Source: a bacterium
GTDB lineage: Bacteria > Actinomycetota > Acidimicrobiia > Spongiisociales > Spongiisociaceae
NCBI GenBank assembly: GCA_026710435.1
Contig: JAPOQZ010000231.1
Location: forward strand, 12,959 to 76,958
Length of the DNA: 64,000 nucleotides
Reading direction: 5' to 3'
Shown here: one piece after another, positions 4,206 to 58,032 of the stretch
Layout: every line of letters starts with the position of its first letter
Position numbering within the stretch: position 1 is the stretch's first letter
Notes under the pieces: generated by a model
What the model saw: only the letters and a program-made list of their open reading frames with translations
Databases searched by the model: none
What the model was told of the DNA's origin: nothing
Made by a program: the position numbers and the translations under genes

Positions 4206-4312
4206 CTAGGACGGTGCTGAACAATGACGATTGCTCGGGCCTGCCGCCCGCCACCCCAGGCATTTTGCCGGCGGTTGGCAGGCCGCTGGTGGATTGCTCA
4301 GCACCCTCCTAG
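4206..4312 (-). repeat. nested-palindrome intergenic repeat, copy A (107 bp, reverse orientation)
   Basis: Its reverse complement is nearly identical to copy B. Both ends carry CTAG: CTAGGACGGTGCTGAAC...GCTCAGCACCCTCCTAG. Confidence 0.9.
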
Positions 4313-4527
4313 GAGGGTGGTACGAGTGAAGTTCGTAGTATGAAGGTACGCAGCACAGACTCACCGTAGGGGATAAGTTTCGACGGGGCCCGTTCGGGCC
4401 CCCTCCTATGCGATTGAGGGGGTGCGCGGATAGGCGGACGGGGTTACCCTCGCCGTGAGAGCCTCAGCTGTTGCCACGTACGAAACCCCTGGCCATAGCC
4501 GTAGAGTCGCCAGATGGATCGGGGGGT

Positions 4528-6084
4528 TTACTCCCGGATCAGCGTGCGGGCCTGCTCCCGCACGTAGGAGCGCATGTACCAGGGACCGCCGCTGCCGGCG
4601 CCCGAGGTACCGGAGCTTTTCCAACCGCCGAAGGGCTGGATGTCGGGCCACGCACCGGTCGTGGACCCGGCCCGGCGGTTGGCGTAAACCACCCCGGCCT
4701 GGATGCGCTGGAAGAACCTGTCCACCTCCTCGTCGGTGCCGGCGAAGACCCCGGCGGTGAGCCCGAAGATCGTGTCGTTGGCCTTGTCGATCCCCTCGTC
4801 CAGAGAGTCCACAGGGGTCACCGCCACGAACGGCACGAACAACTCCTTCTCCCAGATCCAGGTCTCCTCCGGTGCGGTCACCACGGTGGGCTGCACGAAG
4901 TTGCCCCGCGCCATGTCGCCATCGGTGACCACCTCGCCCCCGGACAGGACCTCGCCTCCGGCTTCCCTCACAGCTTCCACCGCGGAACGGAAGCGGTCCA
5001 CCGCCTCCTGGTCGATCACCGGCCCCAGGAAGGTCTCACGGTCGCGAGGGTCTCCCAACCGGACCTCGGCGGTCTTCTCGGCGAGAAGACCGAGGAAATC
5101 CTCGAAGGCGGGCCTCTCCACGTACACACGGGAGTTGGCGGAGCACTTCTGGCCCGACAGCCCGAAGGCAGCACGCATCACCCCTTCGGCCGCCTGGTCG
5201 AGGTCGGCCGTGGCGGTCACCACCGCCGGGTTCTTGCCGCCCATCTCGCACACGACGGGCTTGGGACGGCCGGCGGCCACCGTCCGGTAGAGGTACATCC
5301 CGACGTCGTAGGAACCGGTGAAGGTGACCCCGTCCACATCGTCGTGATGGGCGAGCCGGTCACCCGCCTCGTCGCCCCCGGTCACCACCTGGAGAGCTCC
5401 GGCGGGCAGCCCCGCCCGGGCGTAGATGTCGGCCAGCAGCAAGGATCCGAGGGCGCCGGTGTTGGACGGCTTCAGCACCACCGTGTTGCCGGTCAGCAGA
5501 GCCGCCGAAGTGGGGCTGGCCACCAAGGCCAGAGGGAAGTTGAACGGGGAGATGACCGCCCACACGCCCCAGGGACGCAGCACCGAGTGGTTGGTGTCGC
5601 CCACCCCGTACTGTCCCATGGCCGTCGCCAACCCGTCGGACTCCTCGAGACGGTCGCAGTAGTAGTCCATGAAGGCCACCGCTTCGGAAACGTCGCCCAA
5701 CGCCTCGAGCCGGTTCTTCCCGATCTCGAGGGTGAGGAAGCCGGCCAGGGTAGGGGTCTCCTCCTCGACGATCGCAGCGGCTCGGCGGATGATGGCCAGC
5801 CGGTCCTGCCACGGTGTAGCCTCCTACTCCGCCTGGAATGCCTGGGAAACGGCTACGGCCCCGTCCACATCGTAATCGGAAGCCTGCGAGTAGATCCCCA
5901 CTACGAGATCAGAATCGACGGGGGACCGCTCGGTGAATGTCTCGCCGGTGTACCGCTTCTCACCGTTGATGATCAGCGGATGGGTCTGCCCGATACGGGA
6001 GCTGGCGGCGGTCAAGCCCTCCTCGTAGGCGTGGTGGAGCGCCGGATCGTCGGCCGACATGGTGGCGTAGGTAATTCTTCCCAT
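4528..6084 (-). pseudogene. aldehyde dehydrogenase (1-pyrroline-5-carboxylate / semialdehyde dehydrogenase-like) interrupted by one in-frame TAG at 5824-5826
   Basis: ORFs 5824..6084 and 4528..5700 and the 123 nt between them are all in one frame (1557 nt). The translation reads ...AVAVSQAFQAE*EATPWQDRLAIIRRAAAIVEEETPTLAGFLTLEIGKNRLEALGDVSEAVAFMDYY... and continues through a complete ALDH. Confidence 0.8.
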
Positions 6085-6322
6085 TGTTCCTTACCTTGTG
6101 CGCGAATTGCTGGAAAACGACTCCAGAACTTAGCATGCGTTCCCCCTACCTCTGATGGTCTGTCTCTGAAATGATTCGACGCGCCCTGCCAGCCGGCGAC
6201 GCCCTTCACGGCGTTCCGGTTCCTCAACGTACCGCTGCGGGTACGCCCTTGCCGGCGGGCCTTGCGAGAAACGCCGCTGCCGGCGCCTCCCACACCGCCA
6301 CTCCCCATGCAGGCCACCGTCC

Positions 6323-7342
6323 ATGACCTTCATCCGCCGGTTTCATACGATCGACTCCCACACCGGAGGTGAACCCACCCGGGTAGTCACCGACGGGTTC
6401 CCGGCGCTGGAGGGAGACACCCTGCGGGAGATGGAGGCGGATTTCCTGGCCAACCACGCGGATGTGGCCAGGATGCTGGTCGGCGAACCGCGCGGGCACG
6501 CTCCGTTGCACGCCGTCGTGCCACTCCCGCCGATGCATCCGGAAGCGGATCTCTCCATACTGATCCTGTCCGCGCTCGGTTCGCTGACCATGTGCGGCCA
6601 TGCCTTGATCGGGACGGTCACCAGCCTGGTGGAGATGTTCAGGATCCAACCGGTGGAGCCCGTGACCAGGCTGGTGGTGGAGACCCTCAGCGGCCTCGTC
6701 GTGGCCGACGCACACGTGGAGGGGACCAAGGTTCGTTCGGTCACCTTCCAGGGAGTGCCCTCCTGGGTGGCATTGACGGGTGTCAAGGTGGAGGTCGACG
6801 GACGTTCCATCGTTGTGGACATCGTTTTCGGGGGTCTCTGGTTCGCGCTGGTCCGGATCGAACAGGTCGGTCTGCCGATCTCAGTGGAGTCGGTGCCGAA
6901 CCTCGTTGCCCTCAGCCATCGGATCCGCTCGGAGGTGAACGGGGCACTCCGGAGTCGGGCCGACTTGCCGCCGGGAACTCCGGACCGGGTCGATCAGTTG
7001 CTCTACGTGGGACCACCCAGCAGCCCGGGCGTCGACGGGCAGAATCTGGCGACGTCCACCGGCCTGGGATTCGACCGCTCCCCCTGCGGGACCGGGAGTT
7101 GCGCGCGTATGGCCTGGCACTTCGCGAGGGGGGAACTGGGCGTGGGGGAAGCCTTCGTCCACGAGAGCGTGCTCAACACCACCTTCACCGGCACGGTCAA
7201 GGCCGAGACAGCAATCTCAGGACGGAGCGCGATCATCCCCACCATCACCGGCTCCGCCTACCTGACCGGCTTCAACCAACTGGTCCTCGACCAAGGCGAC
7301 CCCCTGGGGGAGGGTATCTTCATCCCTGCCGCTGGGGGATAG
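6323..7342 (+). CDS. proline racemase family protein, probably a 4-hydroxyproline 2-epimerase or proline racemase
   Basis: N-terminal HTIDSHTGGEPTRVV. Both catalytic cysteine contexts are present (LTMCGHALIG and DRSPCGTGSCARM). Confidence 0.85.
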   Translation: MTFIRRFHTIDSHTGGEPTRVVTDGFPALEGDTLREMEADFLANHADVARMLVGEPRGHAPLHAVVPLPPMHPEADLSILILSALGSLTMCGHALIGTVTSLVEMFRIQPVEPVTRLVVETLSGLVVADAHVEGTKVRSVTFQGVPSWVALTGVKVEVDGRSIVVDIVFGGLWFALVRIEQVGLPISVESVPNLVALSHRIRSEVNGALRSRADLPPGTPDRVDQLLYVGPPSSPGVDGQNLATSTGLGFDRSPCGTGSCARMAWHFARGELGVGEAFVHESVLNTTFTGTVKAETAISGRSAIIPTITGSAYLTGFNQLVLDQGDPLGEGIFIPAAGG

Positions 7343-7493
7343 GCATCTGATCGTGGTTCCCGCGGCTAGCCGCTCCGTAATTCAACTGGACCTTCTCCGG
7401 GGGTAACGTTGCCGTAGCTGCCGATACACGGTTCCGAACCGGCGACGTCACCCTAGGGTAGACTTAAGGGAGCCGACGGCCTGGAAGGGGGGG

Positions 7494-13545: not shown

Positions 13546-14019
13546 TCAGTCCAGACCGGAGAGGGCTTCGATCAGTGTCGGAATCCCCAGACGGCCCTTG
13601 ACCTCGCCTACATCCTTGGCTAGGTCGACAACGATCCCGGTGAGCCCGTCCAAACGCACATCAATCTGCCCGAAACGCTCATCCATGCGGTCGAACCGCC
13701 TGTCCACACCGTCGAACCGGCTATCAATACCCTCCAACCGCCTATCAATACCCTCCAACCGGCTATCCACACCGTCCAACCGCCTATCAATACCCTCCAA
13801 CCGCCTATCCACACCGTCCAACCGGCTATCAATACCCTCCAACCGCCTATCCACACCGTCGAACCGCTTATCTACACGATCGAACCGGCTCTCGATCGCG
13901 GCGATAACCGACGCCAAGTCAGCACGGCGTGCACGATCCAGGTAGATCATCACGGTCAGCATGATCGTCATCATCATTGTGATCATGCCGCCGAAAACAC
14001 CAACGGTCACTGCATCCAT
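13546..14019 (-). CDS. membrane-anchored protein made of about 12 heptad repeats (D-x-R-L/F-D/E-G-V/I)
   Basis: An N-terminal hydrophobic helix (VGVFGGMITMMMTIMLTVMIYL) is followed by DKRFDGV DRRLEGI DSRLDGV DRRLEGI DRRLDGV DSRLEGI DRRLEGI DSRFDGV DRRFDRM DERFGQI DVRLDGL. I chose the ATG at 14019, which has a GGGAG RBS. Confidence 0.65.
   Translation of the reverse strand: MDAVTVGVFGGMITMMMTIMLTVMIYLDRARRADLASVIAAIESRFDRVDKRFDGVDRRLEGIDSRLDGVDRRLEGIDRRLDGVDSRLEGIDRRLEGIDSRFDGVDRRFDRMDERFGQIDVRLDGLTGIVVDLAKDVGEVKGRLGIPTLIEALSGLD
13646..13897. repeat. in-frame 21-bp tandem repeat array (about 10 well-conserved units plus 2 diverged) inside the heptad-repeat gene
   Basis: Units such as CCCTCCAACCGCCTATCAATA and CCGTCCAACCGGCTATCCACA alternate from ~13688 to ~13897. 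Diverged units extend down to ~13646. Confidence 0.85.
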
Positions 14020-14617
14020 CGTGCTGTCTCCCTGCCTGAACGCTACCACACCAACCAGCTAAAGGCCCCGTCTACGTCCGTGTGATGCCATATCACCGGT
14101 TGATTTCGATATATCACATGAAACGAGGATCGGTCAAGACCCATGTGGACCCAACCGGGAATGATCTCCTCCCCATTTGGTGAATCCCTACGCCGGCGCG
14201 GGTGACCGCCTACGTACACGCCCTCTCCCCACCGTGCTTCAGTAGGACTGCAATCGCCATACGATCCTTGTATGGCTGAAGTGCGGCCTTGCGATCAGGT
14301 AGAGGTTGCCTCCGGGTCCGGCTCGCAGTTTTGCCCTCACGGGTTTGGCTCTCACTGCTACAGATGTCACGCGACGGATTGACGCCGGCCGGACATCTCC
14401 CCTCCCAGCATCATCGCACGCGCTCACTCCTTCGGTTCCGCTGGTGTACGCGTGGTGCACTCGTGCAAGTCGGACGTGTGTCTTGGTTTCCTTGGCCGGT
14501 GTACACCGAACTGGGCGGATGCCGGGATGATTTGCCGGCTGGATCGGCTCGACACCGGAGCAGAGCATCGAGAGCCGGGCCGCGGATCGCAGAAACCCGC
14601 AGAAAGGAGTGCCTGTT

Positions 14618-16064: not shown

Positions 16065-16547
16065 TCAGGCTCTCCGAGTTGTCCACATTCCACCGTCCGG
16101 CGTCCAAGTGATCACCACAAGCGATCGGTCTTCGACCCGGGTGAGGACCACCCGGGTCACATCGGCCGTGAACAGGGCCAAGGCCGAGCGGTCATCGATA
16201 GGAAACCGATGGCCCTTGACGAAGATCTCCAGCTCCGTGTCCAGGGCAGGCACAGCCCTACCTTCGACCCGGGCGTCGCCAAGCCGTAAGTCCTCTTCAT
16301 CGGGAGCGCTGTGTATCGAGAACCGGGAGTCCCGTCGAAGATCGTCCGTCTTGCGCGAAACGGTGTCCATTGCCAGCCACAGGTGACCATCCCGGATGGG
16401 AGTTTCCATACCGAAGAGCCGCGGTGCCCCGTCACGTCGTAGGGTCGCCATCACTGCGTGCGTGTGGCCCTCGAACCTGTCCTTCACGGAAGCCGCCAGC
16501 GCAGGCTCGGCCGCCCGGAAGTCCGTCCATGTCACAGCCATCGCCAC
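16065..16547 (-). CDS. pyridoxamine 5'-phosphate oxidase-like (FMN/F420-binding split-barrel) family protein
   Basis: The size and the pattern ...HAVMATLRRDGAPRL...HLWLAM... are typical of PNPOx-like split-barrel proteins. Confidence 0.6.
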   Translation of the reverse strand: MAMAVTWTDFRAAEPALAASVKDRFEGHTHAVMATLRRDGAPRLFGMETPIRDGHLWLAMDTVSRKTDDLRRDSRFSIHSAPDEEDLRLGDARVEGRAVPALDTELEIFVKGHRFPIDDRSALALFTADVTRVVLTRVEDRSLVVITWTPDGGMWTTRRA

Positions 16548-16566
16548 TCACGGACGGTACCGCGAG

Positions 16567-16673
16567 CTAGGAGGGTACTGAGCAATCCACCAGCGGCCTG
16601 CCAACCGCCGACAAAATGCCTGGGCTGGCGGGCGGCAGGCCCGAGCAATCGTCATTGTTCAGCACCGTCCTGG
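16567..16673 (+). repeat. nested-palindrome intergenic repeat, copy B (107 bp)
   Basis: CTAGGAGGGTACTGAGCAATCCACCAGCGGCCTGCC...GGCAGGCCCGAGCAATCGTCATTGTTCAGCACCGTCCTGG. Confidence 0.9.
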
Positions 16674-16773: not shown

Positions 16774-18132
16774 TCAGACGAGAGTCAGGTACTGGTCGAC
16801 CTCGGCGCGGGTCACCTGGTGATGGTGGGCTAGGAACTCCTGGCGTTTGACAGCCGCGAAGTACTCGCTGTAGGGACCGCCCGGGGTCGTTCCCAGGCCC
16901 TTGCGTAGTACGTCGTTGGCGGCCAGGTTGTCGGCCGCGTGCAGCAGCGTGGGCGGCAGGGTCTTGATGCCACGGGCCGCGATCTCGTCGGGCGGGAGGG
17001 TGTAGAGGTTGTCGGTGTTGGGCTCTCCCGGGTCCATCTGCTTGTCGATGCCGTCGAGGCCGCACGCCGCTATGGCGGCGAAGAGAAGGTAGGGATTGGC
17101 GGCTCCGTCGGGCAAGCGGATCTCGATCCGGTCCGGCTCGGGCACCCGGATCATGTGGGTCCGGTTGTTGCCGCCGTAGGCCGCGTAGGCCGGTGCCCAG
17201 GTCGCTCCTGAGATGGGCGCTCCGACGCCCATCCGCTTGTAGGAGTTGACGATGGGGCAGGCGACCGCCACCAATGCTTCGGCATGGGCAAGCAGGCCGG
17301 CTGTGAACCGGTAGGCAAGGTCGCTGAGCCCGAGTCCTTTGCTGTCGGTCTCGCCAGCCGGGAAGAGAGGCTCGTCGGTGTCATCGGTCCACAGGCTCAT
17401 GTGGGCGTGGAGCCCGTTGCCCGTCTTGTCGGAGAAGGGCTTGGGCATGAACGTGGCGTACCTACCGTCCCGCTGGGCCAGGGTATGCACCATCAGGCGG
17501 AACACGATGAGCCGATCGGCGGTGGTCATGGCGTCCGAGTACTTCCAGTTCTGCTCGAACTGCCCGTTGGCGTCCTCGTGGTCGTTGGCGTAGTTCTCCC
17601 AGCCCATCGCGTTCATGTGCTTGGACACGGCGGTCAGGTGGGGGAGCATGCGGGTAAGGCCCCGGGCGTCGTAGCAGGGCCGGGGATCGGTGTCGCGCTC
17701 GTCGGCGACGCGGAGGCTGCCGTCGTCTTCACGTACCACCAGCGAATACTCGGCTTCGAATCCGGACTTCAACACCAGGTTGCGCCGGGCCAGCCGCTCC
17801 AGCGTTCGCCGCAGGATGACCCTGGGAGCGTACGGCCAGAGTTTGCCTTCCACGGTGGGATCGCACTGCATCACGGCGACGTTCGGTTGCCACGGAAGCT
17901 GGGTGTAAGAGGCAGGATCGGGGATCGCCAGGATGTCCGGGCTGGATGGGTCCTGACCCATGGGACCCGCCGCGAATCCGGCGAACCCGGCACCATCAGC
18001 CATCAGGCCGTCGAGCGCCTCGACGGGCACCAGCTTGGCACACGGCCTGCCGTGCATCTCGACGAACATCGCGTAGATGAACTCGACGCCATCCGCTTCG
18101 ACCTTCGACCGGATCTCCTCCACTGAGCCCAC
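16774..18132 (-). CDS. gmaS: glutamine synthetase family protein, candidate gamma-glutamylmethylamide synthetase
   Basis: GS catalytic-domain motifs are present (FMPKPF, GNGLHAHMSLW, NRTHMIRVP). The GTG start has a GAGGAGG RBS. It is divergent from a three-gene split glutamate-synthase-like operon. Confidence 0.75.
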   Translation of the reverse strand: MGSVEEIRSKVEADGVEFIYAMFVEMHGRPCAKLVPVEALDGLMADGAGFAGFAAGPMGQDPSSPDILAIPDPASYTQLPWQPNVAVMQCDPTVEGKLWPYAPRVILRRTLERLARRNLVLKSGFEAEYSLVVREDDGSLRVADERDTDPRPCYDARGLTRMLPHLTAVSKHMNAMGWENYANDHEDANGQFEQNWKYSDAMTTADRLIVFRLMVHTLAQRDGRYATFMPKPFSDKTGNGLHAHMSLWTDDTDEPLFPAGETDSKGLGLSDLAYRFTAGLLAHAEALVAVACPIVNSYKRMGVGAPISGATWAPAYAAYGGNNRTHMIRVPEPDRIEIRLPDGAANPYLLFAAIAACGLDGIDKQMDPGEPNTDNLYTLPPDEIAARGIKTLPPTLLHAADNLAANDVLRKGLGTTPGGPYSEYFAAVKRQEFLAHHHQVTRAEVDQYLTLV

Positions 18133-18277
18133 GTCAAACCTCCTCGCGCAGCTTCCCGGCAGTCACACAACCCGGCGGTGGGTCTCCGGCTACGACTGCT
18201 GAGAATCGGTATTTCACTAGTAGTGTTCGAACCTACATTAGCCCCGGCAACCCGGGGCGATCGGATCGGAGAGCACC

Positions 18278-19177
18278 ATGTGCGGCATCGTCGGCCTCTT
18301 CCTGAAGACCGAACGCTTTCAACCGCGGCTGGGAGAACTCACCGCCCGCATGCTCCACGAGATGCGGGACCGGGGTCCGGACAGTGCAGGATTCGCCGTC
18401 TACGACCAGGCCCGGGCCGGCACGACCCGCATCACCGTGCTGGCGGAACGGCACCGGCCCGACTGGGGTGAGATCGCCGCCGACCTCGAACCGGTCCTCG
18501 AGGCCGGAGTGTCGGTACGGGCCATCCGGGATCATGCCGTGCTCGAGACCGCGGGCGACGGCAGCCTGGCGCGCCAGTGGTTGATAGACAACGCTCCCCA
18601 TCTCGATGTGCTCAGCTACGGATCCCAGATCGAGATCTACAAGGCGGTGGGCGATCCCGACCTGGTAGCCATCAACTATGACCTGGCGTCCCGTTCCGGA
18701 ACCCATGCCCTCGCCCACACCCGGATGGCTACCGAGTCCGCGGTCACCACCAACGGATCCCACCCGTTCGCCACCGGCGCCGACACGTGCCTCATCCACA
18801 ACGGCTCCCTTTCGAACTACTACCAGCTCCGCAGCCGGCTCCGGCGGCAGGGAGAGATCTTCCAGACCGAGAACGACTCCGAAGTGGCCGCCGGCTACCT
18901 GGCCTGGCGCCTCCGCCGGGGTGACAGCATCGAGGAGGCCCTGCAGCGGGCTCTGGTGGCGCTCGACGGGTTCTTCACCTTCGCCATCGGGATCGAGGAC
19001 GGGTTCGCCGTTCTCCGGGATCCGATCGCCTGCAAACCGGCCATCGTCGCCGAGACCGACGACTGGGTGGCCATGTCGTCCGAGTACCGGGCCATCGTCC
19101 ACCTGCCCGACTCCGGCGACGCAGTTGTCTGGGAACCGGCGCCCGGCGTCGTCTACACATGGACCCGGGCTGCGTGA
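18278..19177 (+). CDS. mgsA: class-II glutamine amidotransferase-like subunit (N-methylglutamate synthase subunit A-like)
   Basis: Starts MCGIVGLF (Ntn Cys). It is homologous to the GltB N-terminal domain but encoded as a separate polypeptide. Confidence 0.8.
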   Translation: MCGIVGLFLKTERFQPRLGELTARMLHEMRDRGPDSAGFAVYDQARAGTTRITVLAERHRPDWGEIAADLEPVLEAGVSVRAIRDHAVLETAGDGSLARQWLIDNAPHLDVLSYGSQIEIYKAVGDPDLVAINYDLASRSGTHALAHTRMATESAVTTNGSHPFATGADTCLIHNGSLSNYYQLRSRLRRQGEIFQTENDSEVAAGYLAWRLRRGDSIEEALQRALVALDGFFTFAIGIEDGFAVLRDPIACKPAIVAETDDWVAMSSEYRAIVHLPDSGDAVVWEPAPGVVYTWTRAA

Positions 19178-19881
19178 GCAGGCCGCACCGGTTCACCACC
19201 ATCGACATGGCGGAGACATCGCTGCGCGACGTCAACCAGAGGCTCCACCGCGCCCGGGAGGGCTCGTTCCGGGTGCTGAACCCCCGTGGAGCGCACAGCG
19301 TGGCCGTTGGGATCGACGCCGACATCACGGTAGAGGTCCTCGGCTCGGTGGGCTACTACTGCGCGGGCATGCACCAGAAGGGGTCGGTCCACGTCCAGGG
19401 CAACGCCAGCACAGGGCTGGCCGAGAACATCATGTCGGGGACCGTGCGCATCACCGGCAGCGCCACCATGTCGGCCGGCGCCACCGGCCACGGCGGTCTG
19501 GTGGTGATCGAGGGGAATGCCGGCGCCCGGTGCGGTATCTCGATGAAAGGGGTCGACATCGTGGTGGGAGGCGACGTCGGCCATATGAGCGCTTTCATGG
19601 CCCAGGCCGGAAACCTGGTCGTACTCGGAGACGCCGGGGACGATCTCGGCGACTCGATCTACGAAGCCAACCTCTACGTGCGGGGCAAGGTGGCGAGCCT
19701 GGGAGCCGATGCGATACGCAAGGACATGCGGCCCGAACACATCCGGACCCTGTCTCGTCTGCTCGCGGCGGCGGCGATGGAGGCCGACCCGGGCGACTTC
19801 ACCCGTTACGGCTCGGCTCGCAACCTCTACAACTTCCACATCGACGATGTCGACGCGGAAGTGGCAGGGAGCGCCCGATGA
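19159..19881 (+). CDS. mgsB: GXGXG-motif protein (glutamate synthase C-terminal-domain-like; N-methylglutamate synthase subunit B-like)
   Basis: It has repeated beta-helix G-x-G motifs (GSVGYYCAGM, GNASTGLAENIMSGTVRITGSA...). The start is ATG 19159 or GTG 19174, which overlaps the upstream stop. Confidence 0.8.
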   Translation: MDPGCVSRPHRFTTIDMAETSLRDVNQRLHRAREGSFRVLNPRGAHSVAVGIDADITVEVLGSVGYYCAGMHQKGSVHVQGNASTGLAENIMSGTVRITGSATMSAGATGHGGLVVIEGNAGARCGISMKGVDIVVGGDVGHMSAFMAQAGNLVVLGDAGDDLGDSIYEANLYVRGKVASLGADAIRKDMRPEHIRTLSRLLAAAAMEADPGDFTRYGSARNLYNFHIDDVDAEVAGSAR

Positions 19882-21212
19882 GTCCCACCGGCGGCAACTG
19901 GCACCTGCGGGAGTCGTACACGTTCGACCGCAACGTGATCGCCGAGATCCACCGGGCGGCCAACACCGGCGTCTACCGGATCAGGGGCTGGGGCGCCAAA
20001 CGGAAGCTTCCCACGTTCGACGACCTGGTCTTCCTCGGCGCGTCGATGTCCCGGTACCCGCTGGAGGGTTACCGGGAGTCGTGTGGGACCGATCTGGTGA
20101 TCGGGGAGGGGCGCGCGGCGCGACCGCTCAAGATCGACATACCGGTGACGATCGCCGGGATGAGTTTCGGCTCGCTCTCCAGCCAGGCAAAGGAAGCCCT
20201 CGGTCGGGGAGCCAGCGCCATGGGTACTTCGACCACCAGCGGGGATGGCGGGATGCTCCCCGAGGAGCGGCAGCATTCGTCGAAGCTCGTCTACCAGTAC
20301 CTGCCGTCGCGCTACGGCCAGAACCCCGACGACCTGCGTTCGGCCGACGCGATCGAAGTGGTGGTGGGCCAGGGAGCGAAGCCGGGAGGGGGAGGGATGC
20401 TCTTGGGCCAGAAGGTCAGCGAGCGGGTGGCTGGGATGCGCACCCTGCCCGCCGGCATCGACCAGAGATCGGCCTGCCGCCATCCCGACTGGACCGGGCC
20501 GGACGATCTCCAGATCAAGATCCACGAACTGCGCGAGGTGGTCGACTGGCAGGTTCCGATCTACGTCAAGATCGGCGCGGCCCGACCTTTCTACGACACG
20601 GCACTGGCGGTCAAGGCCGGCGCCGACGCGGTGGTTGTCGACGGTATGCAGGGCGGCACGGCCGCCACCCAGGACGTGTTCATCGAGCATGTGGGTATCC
20701 CCACCATCGCCGCCATACCGGAGGCGGTCCGGGCCCTGCGGGATCTCGACATGCATCGCAAGTCGGTCAAACTCATCGCCTCGGGCGGTATCCGGTCGGG
20801 CGCTGACGTGGCCAAGGCACTGGCGCTGGGCGCCGACGCCGTCTCGATCGGTACCGCGGCCCTGATCGCCTTGGGCGACAACCACCCCGCCCACGACGAG
20901 GAGTATCGCCGGCTCGGTTCGGCGGCCGGCTTCTGGGACGACCTGCAGGACGGAACCGATCCGGCGGGTATCGCCACCCAGGATCCCCGGCTGACATCCC
21001 GCCTCGATCCGGTTATCGCGGGACGCCGGCTGGCCAACTACCTCCAGGTACTGACGCTGGAGACCCAGACCATCGCCCGGGCCAGCGGCAAGTCGCACAT
21101 CTCCAATCTCGAGCCGGAGGATCTGGCCGCCCTCACGGTCGAGGCAGCCGCCATGGCCCAGGTACCCGTGGCCGGCACCGACTGGATTCCCGGCGACCGG
21201 CGCAAGAGCTAG
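19878..21212 (+). CDS. mgsC: FMN-binding glutamate synthase family protein (N-methylglutamate synthase subunit C-like)
   Basis: The ATG at 19878 overlaps the upstream stop (ATGA). Motifs are GGGMLLGQKV, VVVDGMQGGTAA and ASGGIRSGADVAKALALGADAV. The ORF-track extension back to 18678 is out-of-frame overlap with the two upstream genes. Confidence 0.85.
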   Translation: MSPTGGNWHLRESYTFDRNVIAEIHRAANTGVYRIRGWGAKRKLPTFDDLVFLGASMSRYPLEGYRESCGTDLVIGEGRAARPLKIDIPVTIAGMSFGSLSSQAKEALGRGASAMGTSTTSGDGGMLPEERQHSSKLVYQYLPSRYGQNPDDLRSADAIEVVVGQGAKPGGGGMLLGQKVSERVAGMRTLPAGIDQRSACRHPDWTGPDDLQIKIHELREVVDWQVPIYVKIGAARPFYDTALAVKAGADAVVVDGMQGGTAATQDVFIEHVGIPTIAAIPEAVRALRDLDMHRKSVKLIASGGIRSGADVAKALALGADAVSIGTAALIALGDNHPAHDEEYRRLGSAAGFWDDLQDGTDPAGIATQDPRLTSRLDPVIAGRRLANYLQVLTLETQTIARASGKSHISNLEPEDLAALTVEAAAMAQVPVAGTDWIPGDRRKS

Positions 21213-30100: not shown

Positions 30101-30105
30101 GTGTG

Positions 30106-49094: not shown

Positions 49095-50441
49095 ATGCGA
49101 GATCCTTCAGATGAGCGAGACCTGACACGGAGTCGGGCCGTCGCCGCCCGCGACGAGGCGGTCATCACGCCGTCGATGAAGTACCGGCTGTATCCCTTCG
49201 TGGTTGCCAGGTCGGACGGTGTCCGCATGTGGGACAAGGACGGCAACGAGTACCTCGATTGGATGGCTACCGGGGGAACAGCCGCAACCGGTTACGGTCA
49301 CCCGAAGGTGCGCCAAGCGGCTATGGACGCTATCAACAACGAGTTCAGCGGTCCGCTCGTCTGCTACATCCACGAGCCCGCCGTCGAACTGGCTGAGCGG
49401 CTGATCGATGTCTTCCCGGGGGAGTTCACCAAGAAGGCATGGTTCGGTGTTTCCGGTTCCGACGCCATGGACGTGCTCGCCAAGGTGGCGCCCATCGCCT
49501 CGGGAAGACCGCGCCTCGTGTCCTACATCGGAGCGTTCCACGGCATGACGATCGGCTCCGGTGCCATCTCGGGCCACGGAGCCCTTACTCGGCCAATACC
49601 CGGCGGTCACATCACAAAGGCGCCCTATCCCAACCCTTACCGGTGCGCCTGGGGTCCGTGCGACAAGAACGAGTGCTCCCTCAGATGTCTCGACTACCTC
49701 AAGAACGACCTGCTGGTCAATGTTTCTCCTTCCGACGAAACCGCCGCCATCTTCGCCGAGAGTATCCAGTCGGACAGTGGCGAGATCGTTCCACCGGACA
49801 ACTACTTCCCTGCCCTCCGAGAGCTATGCGACGAGCGGGGAATCTGGTTGATTTTCGACGAGGTCAAGGTCGGACTCGGCCGGACAGGACGCATGTTCGG
49901 TTTCCAGCACTTCGGAATCGAAGCGGACGCCATCGGACTTGCCAAACCCTTGGGAGGCGGTTTTCCGCTGTCAGCGGTGGTGGGCCGGCAGGAGATCCTC
50001 GATGTAGACCTCTATACGGCCTACACGCTGGGTGGCTCGCCGCTCAGTTGCTCCGCTGCCGTGGCGGTACTCGACGTGATCGAGGAGGAGGGGCTCGTCC
50101 GCAACGCCGACGAGATGGGAACCTACCTGCGCGACAAGCTAAACGAGATGAGAGCCGACCACCCGCTCATCGGCGATGTGCGCGGCAAGGGTCTCCTCAT
50201 CGGAGTCGAGCTGGTGAAGGACCAACAGACCCGGGAGCCGGCTGAAACGGATGCTTACCGGCTCGCCTACCGCTGCTTCGAACTCGGCCTGATACTGCTG
50301 GCGTTCGGCAACGTGATGGAGATCACCCCGCCGCTGACCATTACCCGGAAGGACGCCGACCAAGCGCTTGGTATCTTCGACCGCGCCCTTGCCGACGTCG
50401 AGGCAGGTCGATTCGATGACACCAAGCTACCCAGCCTCTAG
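49095..50441 (+). CDS. class-III (omega) aminotransferase
   Basis: GAGGAGGAAG RBS. IFDEVKVGLGRTGRMFG is the PLP-lysine region. The stop TAG (50439-50441) lies inside the left end of repeat copy D. Confidence 0.9.
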   Translation: MRDPSDERDLTRSRAVAARDEAVITPSMKYRLYPFVVARSDGVRMWDKDGNEYLDWMATGGTAATGYGHPKVRQAAMDAINNEFSGPLVCYIHEPAVELAERLIDVFPGEFTKKAWFGVSGSDAMDVLAKVAPIASGRPRLVSYIGAFHGMTIGSGAISGHGALTRPIPGGHITKAPYPNPYRCAWGPCDKNECSLRCLDYLKNDLLVNVSPSDETAAIFAESIQSDSGEIVPPDNYFPALRELCDERGIWLIFDEVKVGLGRTGRMFGFQHFGIEADAIGLAKPLGGGFPLSAVVGRQEILDVDLYTAYTLGGSPLSCSAAVAVLDVIEEEGLVRNADEMGTYLRDKLNEMRADHPLIGDVRGKGLLIGVELVKDQQTREPAETDAYRLAYRCFELGLILLAFGNVMEITPPLTITRKDADQALGIFDRALADVEAGRFDDTKLPSL

Positions 50442-50549
50442 GAGAGGCTGAGAGACCCCCGTTGGCCCGACGGCCGATGGGAAACTGCCTGTCCAGCGGA
50501 CGACGGGACAACCGCTACCGCCAATCGTCATTGTTCAGCACCCTTCTAG
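50438..50549 (+). repeat. nested-palindrome intergenic repeat, diverged copy D (112 bp)
   Basis: Left end CTAGGAGAGGCTGAGAG and right end CAATCGTCATTGTTCAGCACCCTTCTAG. The interior is diverged or rearranged. Confidence 0.6.
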
Positions 50550-50845: not shown

Positions 50846-51685
50846 TCAATGACCCGACGGTGGCACGTAGCCTTCGAGAGGCTGGACGAGGATGCCGCCG
50901 TCAACGACGAGGAAGGCGCCGGTGACGAAGGCTGCCATGTCGGAGGCGAGGAACAGCACTGCCCTCGCCACGTCGTCCGGATCGCAGAGACGGCGGAGCG
51001 GGGTTCTCTCCTTGATACCGTCCCACTGAGCCTCCACGTCGATTCCCTCCGGCGCGCCAGCCGTGACCAGGGCGATGGCACCCTCGGTCATGGCCGCACC
51101 GGGGCAGACGGCATTGACCCGTATGCCATGGGCGGCGAGTTCTACCGCCATCGACTTGGTCATCCCTCCGATGGCGTGTTTCGACGTGGTGTAGTGCGCG
51201 AGACCTTCGGCGGAGGTGTTGAAGGCGTCGACCGAGGCGATGTTCACGATGGAACCGCCGTGGCCGTCGGCCATCATGCCCTGGGTGACCGCCTGGGACA
51301 TCTGGAAGGTGCCGACCACGTTGACCGAGACCGTGTCGGCGAACTCCTGCGGTGGCATGTTCGCGAAGTAGTAGTTGGAGTAGATGCCGGCGTTGTTGAC
51401 CAGCACGTCCACCCGGCCTGTTCGCTCCGTCGCGGCATCGACCAGCGCCTGCACCTTGTCCCTGTCAGCGATGTCGACGCTCTGCGCGATAGCGTCGCAT
51501 CCGTGACTTCTCAACCGCTCGGCGGACTTCTCGGCGCCCTCAACGTTGCGGTCAGCTACGAAGACTGTCGCGCCCGCTTCACCGAGGCGGCGTGATATGG
51601 CAGCACCGAAACCTTGGGCTGCGCCCGTCACGATGGCGCACTTACCCTCGAGGCTCAGTAACTCGCTGATACCAGGCAGTGCCAT
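50846..51685 (-). CDS. SDR family oxidoreductase
   Basis: The ATG at 51685 has a GGAGGAAG RBS. VTGAAQGFGAAI and YTTSKHA catalytic motifs. Confidence 0.85.
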   Translation of the reverse strand: MALPGISELLSLEGKCAIVTGAAQGFGAAISRRLGEAGATVFVADRNVEGAEKSAERLRSHGCDAIAQSVDIADRDKVQALVDAATERTGRVDVLVNNAGIYSNYYFANMPPQEFADTVSVNVVGTFQMSQAVTQGMMADGHGGSIVNIASVDAFNTSAEGLAHYTTSKHAIGGMTKSMAVELAAHGIRVNAVCPGAAMTEGAIALVTAGAPEGIDVEAQWDGIKERTPLRRLCDPDDVARAVLFLASDMAAFVTGAFLVVDGGILVQPLEGYVPPSGH

Positions 51686-52540: not shown

Positions 52541-55376
52541 GGACCCTCTCCCCCTCCGGATCGAAGTGGGCGTGGTGCTCGATCACCCGAGCTGTTATGC
52601 GGCGGCCGTCGATCATGAGGACGGTCAGTTCCGAGCCCGGACCCGAAGCCTCCGGAAGCACGTGGCCGAGGCAGACGGAGCGGCCGAGGGTCGGGGACAT
52701 GCGTGAGGACGTGATCCGGCCGATGATCTCGCCGGTTCCGGGCCGCACGATCTGGCTGGCCTCGGGGGGAACGATCCGCGGGTCGGTCGGCTGGATGGCC
52801 ACGAGGACCGGCGCCGACGTGTCTCCGAGGGCCCAGGCCAACTCCGGCTTGCCGGCGAAGTCACTCTTGTCCAGCTTCACGAGGTGTGACAGACCGACCG
52901 CAGGCAGCTTCGTGAGGCCGTCGGTGTCCTGGCCTACGATGAAGTGACCCTTCTCGAGCCGCATGATGCGCTGGCCCTCCACCCCGAACGGCCTGATCCC
53001 GAGATCCTCGCCGGCTTCCAGCAGCGCCTCCCACACGTGAAGGCCGTATCCGGCCGGTACGTGGAGTTCGTAGGAGAGCTCCCCGGTGAATCCGATGCGC
53101 CACATGAAGCAGTCCCGGATACCGGCAACCGTCCCGGTGCGCACCTGCATGTACTTGAAGGACTCCGGGTCGAGGTCCACGTCCTCCACCAGCCGGCGCA
53201 TGAGGGTCCGTGACTTGGGGCCGGCCACGTTGATGCTAGTGAATCCCGACGTGACCGGCGTGACGTGCACCTGCCAGTCGGGATGCTCAGTCTGGAGCCA
53301 GTTCTCGGCCCACTCCCACACGGTCGCGGCGCCCGAACTGGTGGTGGTCATCATGTAGTGCTGGTCACCGAGCCGCCCGGTGACCCCGTCGTCGAAGACC
53401 ACCCCGTCCTCTGCGCACATGATGCCGTACCGCACCGAGCCGACCGCCAGCTTCATCCACTTGTTGGTGTAGAGATGGCTGAGCAGCTTCGGCACGTCGG
53501 GGCCCCGCAGGTCGAGCTTGCCAAGGGGGGTGACATCCATGATGCCGACGTTCTGCCGGGTGTTGAGCACCTCGCCGGCCGGGTCACCGTAGTGGTCGGG
53601 CCGGACCCATTGGCCGGCCAGCATGAACGTGGCTCCGTTGGCCTCGTGCCAGGACTGCACCGACGAGACCCGTACCGGCTCGAACAAACGCCCTCCCAGC
53701 GCCCCCATGGTGATCGGCGCGTAGGGAGGCCGCCAGGTGGTGGTTCCGACCTCGCCGATCGTCTGGCCCCGGGCCTCGGCCAGCACGGCGACGGTGTTGA
53801 CGGTTTCCAGCTTGCCCTGGCTCGGGCCCATCGTTGCGGTGGTGTACCGCTTCAGCAGTTCGACCGAGTCGTATCCCTCGTCCGCCGCTCCCACCATGTC
53901 CTTCGAACTCACATCCTCGGAGAAGTCGACGACTCCGTGCGTGCTCGACCGGAAGAGGGGAGGATGGGAGTAGCGGGGGAGCGACGGCCGGGTATCCGCC
54001 GGCCATGCGGGCTTGTCGCCCTTCGGTGGCCGCGCCCGCGTCGTGGCAGCCTGCAGGGAGTAGGCCACCGACCGAGCCCGGGCCGCGGCGAGCCGTCCCG
54101 TCGCCCGGGCGTGCTCGATGAGTTGTTCGTGATTTCCGTCGCCGACCAGGCCGCCGGTGGCTAGCACGTTCCCGATCGACGCCGACGGGAAGAAGCGAGC
54201 GGCCGCAGCGTCGTACACGGGTCGGTCGCCGGACATGTTCAGCAGGGATGTGGGGGCGGTCCAGCCGGTGGCAGTGACCAGCAGGTCGCATGCAAGCTTG
54301 CCGCCGCCCGGCAGTTCCACACCCTTGACCGACTTCGCTCCCCCCAGGGCGCGCACGATGCTCCCGCCCCGCCGGGCATCGAGAACCGTCACCTCCGCTC
54401 CGGCCCGCTCCAGGTCGGCGGCGGCCGCGGCGCCGTCGGGGGTGGCCGTGAACACCACCGCTCGGGTTCCCGGCCTCACCGCGTACAGGTTCACGAACCT
54501 TCGCACCGCACCTGAGAGCATCACACCCGGCTTGTCGTTGCCGGCGAACACGTAGGGACGTTCGATCAGCCCCGGCGCGGCTACCAGGACCTTGGCCCGG
54601 GCCTTCACAAGCCGCTCGACCGCGACCGGGTGGTTGCGCTGGACGATGGCGATCCAGTTGTCCTTGTAGCGGCCGGTTACGGTCGAGTCGGTGAGGACCT
54701 CCACCCCGGCGGCTGCGACGCCTGCGGCCAGTTCCGCAGCCAGCGCCCGGTCGGGGCCGTCCCCCCAGAGCAGGTGGCCGCCCAGGCGGTGGCCATGCTC
54801 CGCCAGCAGGACCCGCGCACCGGCCTCGGCAGCGGCGATGGCGGCGGCCATCCCGGCCGGACCTCCGCCGGCTACCACCACGTCGGGGTGGGCGTAGCGC
54901 TTGTCGTGGTACTGGAGGGGGGTATCGGGATCGATCCTCCCTCCTGGCGAGAAGGTGGACAGCACCTTCTCGTAGGTCGGCCATAGCCACCTCGGTCGCA
55001 TGAAGGTCTTGTAGTAGAAACCGGCGGTCAGGAACCGGGACGCCAGCCGGGTGACAGCTCTCAGGTCACGATCCAGCGAGGGCCAGACGTTCTGGGCCTC
55101 GACCGCCATGCCATGGCTGATCAGGATGTGCGCCGAGCGGACGTTGGGATCGTCGCCCACCTGAACCAAACCGTTGGGATCCCAGTAGTCGTTGCTCATG
55201 TAGCCGCGAGGCCGGCGGTACTTCATCGACCGGGACACCACCCGGACTCCTGCCGCGGTCAGCGCCGAGGCGATCGTGTCGCCCTCGAAGCCGGACACCA
55301 CCCGTCCGTTCCAGGTGAACTCGACGGGACGGGACCGGTCGATCACCTCGCCCGGCTGCGGAGGGAGGCGGATCAT
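52533..55376 (-). CDS. soxA: sarcosine oxidase alpha-subunit family protein (aminomethyltransferase/folate-binding C-terminus)
   Basis: N-terminal FTWNGRVVSGFEGDTIASAL, VVVAGGGPAGMAAAIAAAEAG, and a C-terminal GcvT-like domain. I chose the ATG at 55376; it overlaps the soxD stop. Confidence 0.9.
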   Translation of the reverse strand: MIRLPPQPGEVIDRSRPVEFTWNGRVVSGFEGDTIASALTAAGVRVVSRSMKYRRPRGYMSNDYWDPNGLVQVGDDPNVRSAHILISHGMAVEAQNVWPSLDRDLRAVTRLASRFLTAGFYYKTFMRPRWLWPTYEKVLSTFSPGGRIDPDTPLQYHDKRYAHPDVVVAGGGPAGMAAAIAAAEAGARVLLAEHGHRLGGHLLWGDGPDRALAAELAAGVAAAGVEVLTDSTVTGRYKDNWIAIVQRNHPVAVERLVKARAKVLVAAPGLIERPYVFAGNDKPGVMLSGAVRRFVNLYAVRPGTRAVVFTATPDGAAAAADLERAGAEVTVLDARRGGSIVRALGGAKSVKGVELPGGGKLACDLLVTATGWTAPTSLLNMSGDRPVYDAAAARFFPSASIGNVLATGGLVGDGNHEQLIEHARATGRLAAARARSVAYSLQAATTRARPPKGDKPAWPADTRPSLPRYSHPPLFRSSTHGVVDFSEDVSSKDMVGAADEGYDSVELLKRYTTATMGPSQGKLETVNTVAVLAEARGQTIGEVGTTTWRPPYAPITMGALGGRLFEPVRVSSVQSWHEANGATFMLAGQWVRPDHYGDPAGEVLNTRQNVGIMDVTPLGKLDLRGPDVPKLLSHLYTNKWMKLAVGSVRYGIMCAEDGVVFDDGVTGRLGDQHYMMTTTSSGAATVWEWAENWLQTEHPDWQVHVTPVTSGFTSINVAGPKSRTLMRRLVEDVDLDPESFKYMQVRTGTVAGIRDCFMWRIGFTGELSYELHVPAGYGLHVWEALLEAGEDLGIRPFGVEGQRIMRLEKGHFIVGQDTDGLTKLPAVGLSHLVKLDKSDFAGKPELAWALGDTSAPVLVAIQPTDPRIVPPEASQIVRPGTGEIIGRITSSRMSPTLGRSVCLGHVLPEASGPGSELTVLMIDGRRITARVIEHHAHFDPEGERVRG

Positions 55377-55645: not shown

Positions 55646-55715
55646 GCCGTGTGCCTGTCGATTGCCATCGCCGGCAAGCAGGACACGAGTAGTTGTTTCA
55701 CAGGCAGACCACCCA

Positions 55716-57005
55716 CTAGTGGCCGACCGCCGCGGCGCCCTTTTCCCCTACGAGGGCGTCTCTGCGGAACCGGGACAGCGCGAACGGGGCGATCAGGTCG
55801 GGGGTCCTCTGCGTGGCTATGGCCTCGGCCATCTGCTCGCCCGACACCGGCCCGGCCTTGAAACCGTAGGTGCCCCATCCGACGTCGCACAGGAATCCTT
55901 CCACGGGGGTGAACCCCATCACGGGCGAGTAGTCGGGGGTCATGTCGCAAAGGCCGGCCCACTGTCGCAGCAGCCGCATGCGCGAGATGCCGGGCATGAG
56001 TTCCAGCAGGTGTCCTGCCGTCTGCTCGGTGAAGTCGAGGGATCCGCGCATGCTGTAGGTGTTGTAGGGGTCGACGGACGCGCCGAACACCAACTCGCCC
56101 CGGGAGGTCTGGCTCACATAGACGTGAAGCGTCCCTGACACGACCACGACAGGCAGGAACACCTTGACCGGTTCGGTAACCGCCGCTTGGAGGGGGCGGG
56201 TGGTGATGGGCAGGTTGACGCCTGCCATGTCGGAGATCAGCGTCGCCCATCCCGCGGTGCAGTTCACGACTACGGGCGCCGAGATACAGCCGCGGTTGGT
56301 GCGAACCCCGGTGACCCTGCCTCCGGGTCCTTTCCCGCCTGGGCCGTCGCCGCCCGTGACCATGATGTCGAGAACCTCGGTCTTCTGGTGCATCTCGACG
56401 CCCAGGTGGTCGGCCCCCCTCGCGTATCCCCATACGACTGCGTCGTGGCGGATGATGCCTCCCGGCGGGTGGTACAGAGCGCCCAGTATCGGGTAACGGG
56501 GGTGGCTGGAAGTATCGAGAGCCGGCGCCAGCCTCTTGATCTCTGCCGGCCCGATCACACTCGAGTTGACGCCCTGGAGCTTGTTGACCTCGGCCCTCCA
56601 ATGCATGGTCCGGAGCGAGGCGTCGCTGTGCGCCAGGGTTATGTGCCCGCGCTGGGAGAACATGACGTTCATGTTGAGGTCGGTGGCCAGCCTCTTGTAG
56701 AGATCCAGGGAACGGTCGTAGAAGACGACGCCCTCCGGCGTGAGGTAGTTGGATCGCAGGATGGCGGTGTTCCGTCCGGAGCCCCCGCTTCCCAGATAGG
56801 ACTTTTCGAGCACCGCTACGTTGGTTATGCCGTGGTTGGTAGCCAGGTAGTAGGCTACGGACAGCCCGTGGACGCCGCCGCCGACGACCACGACGTCGTA
56901 GCTGCTCCGGAGCGGGACATCCCGCCATACGCGTGGCCAACTCCTGCTGCGAGCACCCCTCGCCAGCAGTCCGGCGGCGGAATATCGGGGGGAAAGTCTC
57001 TTCAT
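55716..57005 (-). CDS. soxB: sarcosine oxidase beta-subunit family FAD oxidoreductase
   Basis: RYSAAGLL...YDVVVVGGGVHGLSVAYYLATNHGITNVAVLEK and the C-terminal EKGAAAVGH match SoxB. I chose the ATG at 57005 inside ORF 55716..57095. Confidence 0.9.
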   Translation of the reverse strand: MKRLSPRYSAAGLLARGARSRSWPRVWRDVPLRSSYDVVVVGGGVHGLSVAYYLATNHGITNVAVLEKSYLGSGGSGRNTAILRSNYLTPEGVVFYDRSLDLYKRLATDLNMNVMFSQRGHITLAHSDASLRTMHWRAEVNKLQGVNSSVIGPAEIKRLAPALDTSSHPRYPILGALYHPPGGIIRHDAVVWGYARGADHLGVEMHQKTEVLDIMVTGGDGPGGKGPGGRVTGVRTNRGCISAPVVVNCTAGWATLISDMAGVNLPITTRPLQAAVTEPVKVFLPVVVVSGTLHVYVSQTSRGELVFGASVDPYNTYSMRGSLDFTEQTAGHLLELMPGISRMRLLRQWAGLCDMTPDYSPVMGFTPVEGFLCDVGWGTYGFKAGPVSGEQMAEAIATQRTPDLIAPFALSRFRRDALVGEKGAAAVGH

Positions 57006-57507
57006 CGGTCGCGCATGGTAACGGCACCTCCCACCAGGTCGAATTGATTGCCAGTGGCTGAAAAAGCCGCTCGCCATGGGCCCGGTATTCAGCAACTCGC
57101 CATCGATGTTCGGAGTGGGCCGCCCTGTCCTCCGCGCAGGGCCCAGGACGTCCGAGAACGCGAAACCCGCCTACGGGGTCCCGCCTGGGTTCCCTCCCCC
57201 GCCGCCACCTCCAGGGGTCGAAACGCGTTCCTCTATGCCCGTGCGGGTCGGCTTCGACAACATGATCCTTGCCACGGTCCGGTCGACGTCGCACCGGACC
57301 GGTGATGTTTAAGGCTGCTTACCAAACTACAACATGGCTGTGACACTGTCCATCCCCTCCTGCCGGCACGCTTGAGACGCCGCCGGGGATCATGTACGTC
57401 TCGATGCGATCGTCGTTCGTCGGTGACTCGATCGACCAGTGCATTGGGCGGGGAAACTCGACGCGACCCTCTGGGTGCTCAATGACTCCCAAAAAAGGCT
57501 TGCTGCT

Positions 57508-57614
57508 CTAGGAGGGTGCTGAGCAATCCACCAGCGGCCTGCCAATCGCCAGCATGATTCGTGGGTCGGCGGGCGGCAGGCCCGAGCAATCGTCGTTGTT
57601 CAGCACCCTCCCGG
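57508..57614 (+). repeat. nested-palindrome intergenic repeat, copy E (107 bp)
   Basis: CTAGGAGGGTGCTGAGCAATCCACCAGCGGCCTGCC...GGCAGGCCCGAGCAATCGTCGTTGTTCAGCACCCTCCCGG. It lies 24 nt beyond the arsR-family gene stop. Confidence 0.9.
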
Positions 57615-57637
57615 GAACCCGTCCCGGTGGTCGAGGA

Positions 57638-57964
57638 TCAGGCCTGGAGTATGTGGCTGAGGGAGGCGAGGCGTTCCGGCACGGTCCTGTAGTAGACCCA
57701 TCGACCGCGTTTCTCGGACACCACCAGACCGGCCCGTCGCAGCACCTTGAGGTGATGGCTGACGGTGGGCTGGGACACTCCGAGTGGTTCCACCATCTCG
57801 CATGCCGCGCATGCCTCCCCCTTGGCACCGATGAGGCTGAGCAGCCGGAGTCTGGTGGGATCCGCCAGCACCCCGAACCAGCGGGCGAACTGCTTAGCCT
57901 GTGCCTCTTCTAACGGTTCGTCGATGATCGGTGCGTACCCTGTCATGCTGGACAACTCTGACAC
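57638..57964 (-). CDS. ArsR/SmtB family metalloregulatory transcription factor
   Basis: LADPTRLRLLSLI...CAACEM...LGVSQPTVSHHLKVLRRAGLV is a winged HTH. Confidence 0.9.
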   Translation of the reverse strand: MSELSSMTGYAPIIDEPLEEAQAKQFARWFGVLADPTRLRLLSLIGAKGEACAACEMVEPLGVSQPTVSHHLKVLRRAGLVVSEKRGRWVYYRTVPERLASLSHILQA

Positions 57965-57973
57965 CTCCTTCGG

Positions 57974-58032
57974 CTAGGAAGGCACTGAGCGATCCACCAG
58001 CGGGCAATCGTCATCGTTCAGCACCCTCCTAC
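57974..58032 (+). repeat. nested-palindrome repeat, short copy F (59 bp) lacking the inner hairpin
   Basis: It aligns end to end with copy E except for a clean 48-nt internal deletion between CCAGCGG and GCAATCG. Its right-end CTA (58029-58031) is the stop of the permease gene. Confidence 0.85.

Follow-up and report, generated by a model that had tools for sequence, protein, structure and literature searches.

A highly repeated family of TA-flanked miniature elements with IS1182-family ends in sponge-associated Acidimicrobiia

The Correia elements of Neisseria (also known as NEMIS) are about 100–150 bp long, carry terminal inverted repeats (TIRs), duplicate a TA dinucleotide upon insertion, and are found at gene ends in hundreds of copies, among them short deleted forms; they give rise to hairpin transcripts, and processing by RNase III as well as promoter or terminator effects have been documented. 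We know of no autonomous partner that has been established for them. Repetitive extragenic palindromes (REPs) are imperfect palindromes of 20–40 nt that depend on a tyrosine (HUH) transposase, the REP-associated tyrosine transposase (RAYT), and have, to our knowledge, neither long TIRs nor a target site duplication (TSD). Among described elements, the repeats reported here come closest to MITEPye1 from Paracoccus yeei, a miniature inverted-repeat transposable element (MITE) that is derived from the IS1182 family of insertion sequences (ISs) and registered in ISfinder (PMC11578231). IS1272, which belongs to the IS1182 family, targets stem-loops and leaves no TSD (PMC5678879). Here, we analyzed a family of palindromic intergenic repeats in a 64,000-nt stretch of contig JAPOQZ010000231.1 (assembly GCA_026710435.1, positions 12,959 to 76,958 of the forward strand), referred to as the window. 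An initial annotation of the window, made from the sequence alone, had listed six copies (A to F) and considered a MITE or REP-like mobile palindrome, a bidirectional terminator module, and a structured small RNA (sRNA) family as possible identities. Our analysis supports the MITE and lends no support to the other readings: the repeats are very probably copies of a MITE that derives from an IS1182-family DDE transposase element and is most likely mobilized in trans by such a transposase.

MITEPye1 resembles the present family in that it is non-coding and intergenic, has 18-bp TIRs matching IS1182-family ends, carries short direct repeats, can form a long hairpin, and presumably depends on mobilization in trans. 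The present family is shorter (~101–118 bp versus 159 bp), belongs to another phylum (Acidimicrobiia versus an alphaproteobacterium), and is far more abundant (about one copy per 10–12 kb versus 1–3 copies per chromosome). The direct repeats reported for MITEPye1 measure 4 bp; in the present family, the duplication is confined to the TA in the middle of a CTAG-like site. The two elements were compared by description and not by sequence. Full-length IS1182-family ISs (NCBIfam NF033551; found at the related loci L014 and L003) share identical 17-nt ends (GGAGGGTGCTGA[A/G]CAAT) and TA or C-TA-G flanks with the repeats, but are ~1.8 kb long and encode a DDE transposase of ~540 aa, whereas the repeats encode nothing. 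IS1272 differs by its missing TSD. Size, TIRs, TA duplication, copy number, gene-end location, and short deleted forms are all reminiscent of the Correia elements, from which the family is set apart by its unrelated sequence, host phylum, and parent. With REPs and bacterial interspersed mosaic elements (BIMEs) it has in common that intergenic palindromes are abundant; however, the elements described here are 100–118 nt long, with 17–20-nt DDE-type IS ends and a TA duplication. No description of the family was found in the searchable literature. We regard it as a new family of well-known selfish DNA and not as a new RNA or regulatory system; the general view of mobile DNA remains unchanged, and the finding will not surprise a specialist.

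Element ends and target site

All six annotated copies were recovered in the window sequence (Table 1), and a repeat finder run on the window identified the same family. End patterns matched well above expectation, with six matches of a 22-nt right-end pattern (0.02 expected), four matches of a 30-nt left-end pattern (0 expected), and 11 ends matched by a 19-nt pattern (0.01 expected). Copies A and B are near-identical in opposite orientation, as had been noticed before (96% complementary over 108 nt), and the previously described inner GGCCTGCC/GGCAGGCC inverted repeat and GAGCAATC(C/G) direct repeat were seen in copies A, B, C, and E. A solo right end that had been rated as only possible proved to be genuine (2 mismatches in 19 nt, 0.01 expected), its recognizable sequence being limited to the last ~20–25 nt. 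Recurrent peptides in the open reading frame (ORF) track are indeed artefacts from translating the repeat, and the elements, which at 59–118 nt fall below the size of about 300 bp that bounds MITEs, lack coding capacity.

The element proper reads GGAGGGTGCTGA(G/A)CAAT…ATTGTTCAGCACCCTCC (GGAGGG...CCCTCC) and spans 101 nt in the main type. Its two TIRs (GGAGGGTGCTGA[G/A]CAAT) measure ~17–20 nt, and not 12 bp as first described, and enclose a short, GC-rich, internally palindromic core. Junction statistics were derived from 143 unique copies with flanks. Most TIR positions are conserved in at least 90% of these copies, and two positions in 76–89%. At the left junction, the consensus is C (87%), T (93%), A (95%), G (99%), G (98%); at the right junction, it is C (98%), T (90%), A (83%), G (78%). 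Positions farther out correspond to random sequence. TA is present on both sides in 106 of the 143 copies. Copies with an outer left base other than C (TTAG, GTAG, ATAG) retain CTAG on the right side, and copies with an outer right base other than G (CTAC, CTAA, CTAT) retain CTAG on the left side. We therefore ruled out a 4-bp duplication of CTAG, because both sides would then show the same tetranucleotide, whereas the outer C and G vary independently and the inner G and C are 98–99% conserved. The duplicated target is TA, and the surrounding C and G represent a flanking preference (C-TA-G). Thus, the flanking CTAG, originally assigned to the element termini, contributes only its inner G and C to the element; its TA stems from the target duplication, and the outer C/G belongs to the flank. 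A TA duplication also agrees with the 103 nt (101 + 2) that are skipped at the empty site of copy B and with the single CTAG or CTGG found at empty sites (see below).

Since G is the first base of the element, TAG appears at each junction when it is read inward from either flank. More than a quarter of the copies (39/143, 27%) adjoin the stop codon of a long ORF with high GC content at third codon positions (GC3). Per junction, stop-codon contact amounts to 15%, compared to 8.4% at other CTAG sites. This enrichment of about 1.8-fold is real but modest, and stop-codon targeting as a strong rule was consequently ruled out. CTAG is under-represented about three-fold in related contigs. All copies in the window are intergenic, in agreement with the initial annotation, but the junction TAG doubles as the stop codon of the neighboring gene in copies C, D, and F. 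We propose that the two ends would be bound by the transposase and inserted at TA, preferably within C-TA-G, and that repair of the staggered cut would duplicate TA. The protein would be spared by an insertion that hits the TA of a stop codon or lands shortly after a gene, because the junction reads TAG inward. This would help to explain why the copies, in a 65% GC genome with few CTAG sites, have accumulated at gene ends, and we infer that selection caused this location.

About 5% of the copies, copy A and a tandem pair at locus L090 among them, lie directly next to a further TIR-like start. This is expected if the element junctions themselves represent C-TA-G targets, and they do seem to be re-used as such. 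In the tandem pair (L090, 1229–1456), two full copies are arranged head to tail and have the junction dinucleotide in common. A GGAGGGTGGT remnant like that beside copy A was also observed at L003, just after position 5755.

Copy number, empty sites and IS1182-family relatives

Sequencing depth and contig borders were obtained by aligning Logan contigs of related sponge-metagenome runs to the window. The depth of the element was about 130–600 times the flanking depth, and there are dozens of contigs whose sequences depart from the window precisely at 4206/4312, 16567/16671, and 57508/57611. An empty site of copy B was identified in two runs (X6 and X10), where a strain with ~95–98% identity is represented by contigs of 3.3 and 5.5 kb. 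These contigs join position 16566 to 16670, thereby skipping 16567–16669 (103 nt) and keeping a single CTGG. Other empty orthologous or paralogous sites likewise retain a single CTAG or CTGG (e.g., L046 compared to L121). Presence or absence at orthologous sites, which the initial annotation had suggested examining together with copy number, is thus polymorphic, copy B being missing from the X6/X10 strain.

As to copy number, the consensus is abundant in relatives, with unrelated flanks. A metagenome scan with the conserved right end revealed at least 118 stretches, mostly from MKWU01, the assembly of an Aplysina aerophoba microbiome (PMC5649159). A profile search of 1.18 Mb of fetched related loci identified 215 copies (169 at full length), with length peaks at 105–107 and 114–116 nt. 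Beyond the seed copy of each locus, these loci contain about one further copy per 12 kb, and the window contains six per 64 kb; the family is amplified to roughly one copy per 10–12 kb in sponge-associated Acidimicrobiia. Subfamilies comprise the 107-nt type, a 117-nt type, the D type, which recurs in r97 and r98, and deletion forms of ~55–59 nt. Short forms of the F type with a nearly identical deletion junction were also found at L137 and L066, and chimeric E/D forms occur among the metagenome contigs.

To trace the terminus beyond these loci, one genome per GTDB species was scanned for the 19-nt sequence TAGGAGGGTGCTGARCAAT, which gave at least 22 loci. Among the matches listed, about half are two-ended elements of ~100–118 nt, and the rest are single ends. 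The single ends at L003, L010, L014, and L016 adjoin a transposase gene with DUF772, DDE_Tnp_1, and DDE_Tnp_1_6 domains, and the MITE end is identical in 17/17 nt to one end of each of these four ISs. The four ISs, and a further one at locus L106, are from other Actinomycetota. The partner ends of the four, and the IS at L106, have the first ~12 nt in common or are degenerate. The transposase at L003 matches the NCBIfam model NF033551 ("IS1182 family transposase") with 118.7 and 189.3 bits in two frameshifted halves (whole-protein cutoff 270). Since the transposases at L003, L010, L014, and L016 adjoin the shared ends, the small elements carry IS1182-family ends, although the initial annotation had not recognized them as any IS end. 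Direct repeats of 2–60 bp are given for the IS1182 family in a passage of PMC7335449 that cites ISfinder, and the 2-bp (TA) direct repeat found here falls within this range.

Three of the ISs are described further, with dashes marking the element boundaries. The IS at L014, from a metagenome-assembled genome (MAG) of Nocardioidaceae, is ~1.86 kb long, contains a single open frame of 546 codons, and appears to be intact; its ends read TA-GGAGGGTGCTGAACAAT... and ...TTGTTCAGCGGCCTCC-CA. The IS at L003 (3989–5755) resides on the Ca. Spongiisociaceae chromosome OZ253564.1. Its two ends differ (GGAGGGTGCTGAGCAAT and GGGGACTGCTGATTTAG), and its transposase is frameshifted at about 4900. The third, at L106, is an IS1182-type IS on an A. 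aerophoba microbiome contig that starts with TA-GGAGGGTGCTGATTTAATCG (TA-GGAGGGTGCTGA), lies 1.2 kb from a MITE copy, and occurs in runs that also hold the organism of the window. It was recovered as an exact 1,724-nt contig in run X1 at a depth of 9.35, compared to about 11,500 for the MITE bin; the small elements therefore outnumber it by two to three orders of magnitude. As an intact parent from the same community, this IS was ruled out by its frameshift and the apparently missing right end. Regarding its surroundings (L106, 7590–7847 and 9525–10148), the IS is inserted at a TA and followed by another highly repeated segment, which gives the region the look of an IS-rich island. The DNA just before the insertion TA resembles, by eye, the 3' end of an IS630-type transposase gene.

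Taken together, the family shows all testable defining features of a MITE. This reading is supported by IS1182-family TIRs, a TA duplication, precise empty sites, a very high copy number, and deleted as well as chimeric derivatives. Judging from the shared ends, an IS1182-family transposase would mobilize the family in trans. Several points weigh against this reading. Copy B is flanked by two different dinucleotides (TA/TG), of which TG is found in the empty allele. Duplication of TA is likewise a hallmark of IS630/Tc1-mariner elements. As already noted in the initial annotation, the window holds no transposase for the element (no IS1182-type match by tblastn), and an apparently intact cognate IS was seen only in the Nocardioidaceae MAG (L014). 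Both ISs from sponge symbionts are degenerate (L003 frameshifted; L106 frameshifted and apparently 3'-truncated), and the MITE has only the terminal ~17–20 nt in common with the ISs, its subterminal sequences being absent from the full-length ISs seen.

The window has a GC content of 65% and matches the 239-kb ENA metagenome contig ERZ27241798:k141_2326 as well as Logan contigs from sponge metagenomes. Related copies are found in MAGs labeled Acidimicrobiia, including Ca. Spongiisociaceae, so that the window most likely comes from one of the Acidimicrobiia associated with sponges. A search of a plasmid collection yielded no meaningful match to the element; among plasmid-borne genes, the best matches of the GlnT-like protein from the window are from Streptomyces and Mycobacterium. 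Spread across phyla was considered and set aside. The sole non-actinobacterial label belongs to the "Kiloniellales" MAG CAXMOP01, which has 65% GC and of which one tested protein matches Rhodococcus and Meiothermus best, so that its label probably reflects mis-binning. The CAXMOP01 loci (L008, L009, L021, L022, and L024) carry the 117-nt subfamily, which is otherwise found in Acidimicrobiia MAGs, and the name of the bin ends in ".orig".

The family explains recurrent spurious ORFs and contig breaks in sponge-symbiont Acidimicrobiia. Contigs from short reads repeatedly break off within the element, so that binning and annotation should benefit from masking it. Sites that are filled or empty in different strains of ~96% identity could serve as strain-level population markers for sponge symbionts. 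Furthermore, the chemistry by which IS1182-family elements transpose is not well defined. The subgroup that duplicates TA within C-TA-G offers a simple system for its study, with natural insertion sites numbering in the hundreds and, at L014, a candidate transposase that appears to be intact.

Hairpin folding and alternative explanations

Long hairpins are predicted for both strands of every full copy (−55 to −66 kcal/mol, z = −3.5 to −6.7), with −74.6 kcal/mol for the subfamily consensus. When 52 diverse copies are aligned, the TIR pair makes up the outer stem, and pairing of the inner stem is kept through two-sided changes: columns 31/86 are GC in 25 and CG in 24 sequences, and columns 34/84 are CG in 25 and UA in 21 sequences. 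Most of these compensatory pairs separate the 107-nt from the 117-nt subfamily as fixed differences and thus reflect few independent events; within subfamilies, changes are mostly one-sided, with little covariation (alifold). G·U and A·C mismatches revealed no strand bias (18 vs. 11 pairs in the 107-nt type and 12 vs. 11 in the 117-nt type). A structure specific to RNA gained no support, given the lacking G·U/A·C asymmetry and the scant covariation within subfamilies, and a DNA palindrome fits the data as well as any RNA. The elements end in ...CACCCTCCTAG, and neither a sigma-70-like promoter nor a U-tract terminator was detected at the two regions scanned (E/F and B; 0 sites). A match to a described RNA family, which the initial annotation had left as an option, was not obtained from Rfam 15 (0 matches at gathering thresholds; best was Cobalamin with 11.8 bits against a cutoff of 31.5, E = 0.36).

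Very stable hairpins on both strands raise the question of whether the copies were exapted as bidirectional terminators or as 3'-end hairpins that stabilize mRNA, which would be compatible with an origin as a MITE. The location at gene 3' ends, with 27% of the copies adjoining a long-ORF stop, and the inner stem that remains paired between subfamilies despite two-sided changes would fit such a role. We nevertheless consider it unlikely, as the terminator scan of E/F and B showed no U-tract after the hairpin, the stop association is only about 1.8-fold relative to other CTAG sites and follows from the target preference, the compensatory changes represent few independent events, and a closely related strain lacks copy B entirely.

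In a variant of this idea, the nested palindrome itself would be under selection, either because the transposase acts on a hairpin or cruciform or because hundreds of copies were co-opted by the sponge-symbiont Acidimicrobiia as gene-end insulators, terminators, or RNA-stabilizing hairpins. The former echoes the structure-dependent, stem-loop-targeting transposition of IS1272; if co-option were true, the built-in TAG at both junctions would make an insertion into a stop codon harmless. We assign this proposal a low probability.

A structured small or cis-regulatory RNA, transcribed from one strand, appears very improbable. It could draw on the strong predicted folds and the conserved pairing, but Rfam contained no match, promoter-like sites were absent at E/F and B, the copies occur in both orientations relative to the neighboring genes, and the mismatches are unbiased between strands. 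Moreover, the best-conserved parts are the transposon ends, and the core is less conserved.

A further option concerns the transposase: the MITE could be mobilized by an IS630/Tc1-mariner-type enzyme instead of IS1182. This would account for the TA duplication, and the DNA next to the L106 IS, which is highly repeated, looks by eye like the 3' end of an IS630-type transposase gene. However, four independent IS1182-family ISs carry the 17-nt end without a single difference, direct repeats from 2 bp upward are reported for this family (same passage of PMC7335449), and no IS630-type IS with these ends was seen, though no specific search was made. We consider this enzyme very improbable. Even less probable is an element of the REP/BIME type, mobilized by a RAYT (a tyrosine transposase similar to IS200/IS605): the repeats are intergenic, palindromic, and highly repeated, but the unit measures about 100–118 nt and not 20–40 nt, its long TIRs are identical to DDE-type IS1182-family ends, and it shows a TA target duplication and precise empty sites. 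Local duplication or an assembly artefact, to which the clustering of E and F and nothing further points, was ruled out by copies in many independent assemblies, runs, and MAGs, each with different flanks, and its probability is negligible.

Copies and other features of the window

The copies of the family and their neighboring genes are compiled in Table 1.

Table 1. Repeat copies, remnants, and adjoining genes (window coordinates).
Feature	Position	Strand	Remarks
Copy A, 107-nt type	4206–4312	−	Element proper 4209–4309; TA at 4207–4208 and 4310–4311
TIR-like remnant GGAGGGTGGT	4312–4321		Directly after copy A
Aldehyde dehydrogenase gene	4528–5700	−	Copy A lies 3' of it
PNPOx-like gene	16065–16547	−	Copy B lies between this and the glnT-like gene
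Copy B, 107-nt type	16567–16673	+	Element proper 16570–16670; TA (16568–9), TG (16671–2)
glnT-like gene	16774–18132	−	
Copy C, 107-nt type	21273–21379	+	Element proper 21276–21376
Permease gene	21376–22431	−	Its TAG stop is the right-junction CTA of copy C (21376–21378)
Solo right end TTGTTCAGCGCCCTCCTGG	32020–32038	+	Remnant of a decayed copy
Aminotransferase gene	49095–50441		Its stop codon is the left-junction TAG of copy D (50439–50441)
Copy D, diverged 112-nt subfamily	50438–50549	+	Right end common to the family, left TIR weaker, core different
Copy E, 107-nt type	57508–57614	+	Element proper 57511–57611; left TA intact, right dinucleotide CG
arsR	57638–57964	−	Copy E lies 3' of it
Copy F, 59-nt internal-deletion form	57974–58032	+	Junction CCAGCGGG-CAATCG; both TIRs kept, centre lost
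ArsP_1 permease gene	58029–59039	−	Its TAG stop is the right-junction CTA of copy F (58029–58031)

Copies E and F bracket arsR, with F located between arsR and the upstream ArsP_1-type permease gene. The segment 57508–59039 thus contains two hairpin elements in or beside an apparent small arsR/ArsP_1 operon.

Several short stretches inside ordinary genes, namely those of an SDR-family dehydrogenase and a 1001-aa ORF, displayed 10–100 times the flanking depth in the sponge metagenomes (51383–51418, roughly 52840–53400, 54830–55110, and 55960–56530), and many contigs diverge at 51383 and 51418. These stretches are most likely motifs conserved within large gene families of the community rather than mobile elements.

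A tandem array of a 21-bp unit was found at 13681–13890 (about 9 copies, 81% matches, no indels; periods of 42 and 63 were detected as well). It lies inside the overlapping ORFs 13546–14049 (−) and 13598–13945 (+) and probably encodes an in-frame 7-residue repeat. The X6 strain has exactly one 21-nt unit fewer at 13721, and the length of the array is hence polymorphic between strains.

Finally, copies B and C bracket a gene cluster at 16774–21212 that encodes a type III glutamine-synthetase-like protein (GlnT/Gln-synt_C), a GATase_6/7 protein, an unannotated ORF, and a protein with a Glu_synthase domain. We take this cluster to resemble the gamma-glutamylmethylamide/N-methylglutamate gene set of methylamine utilization.

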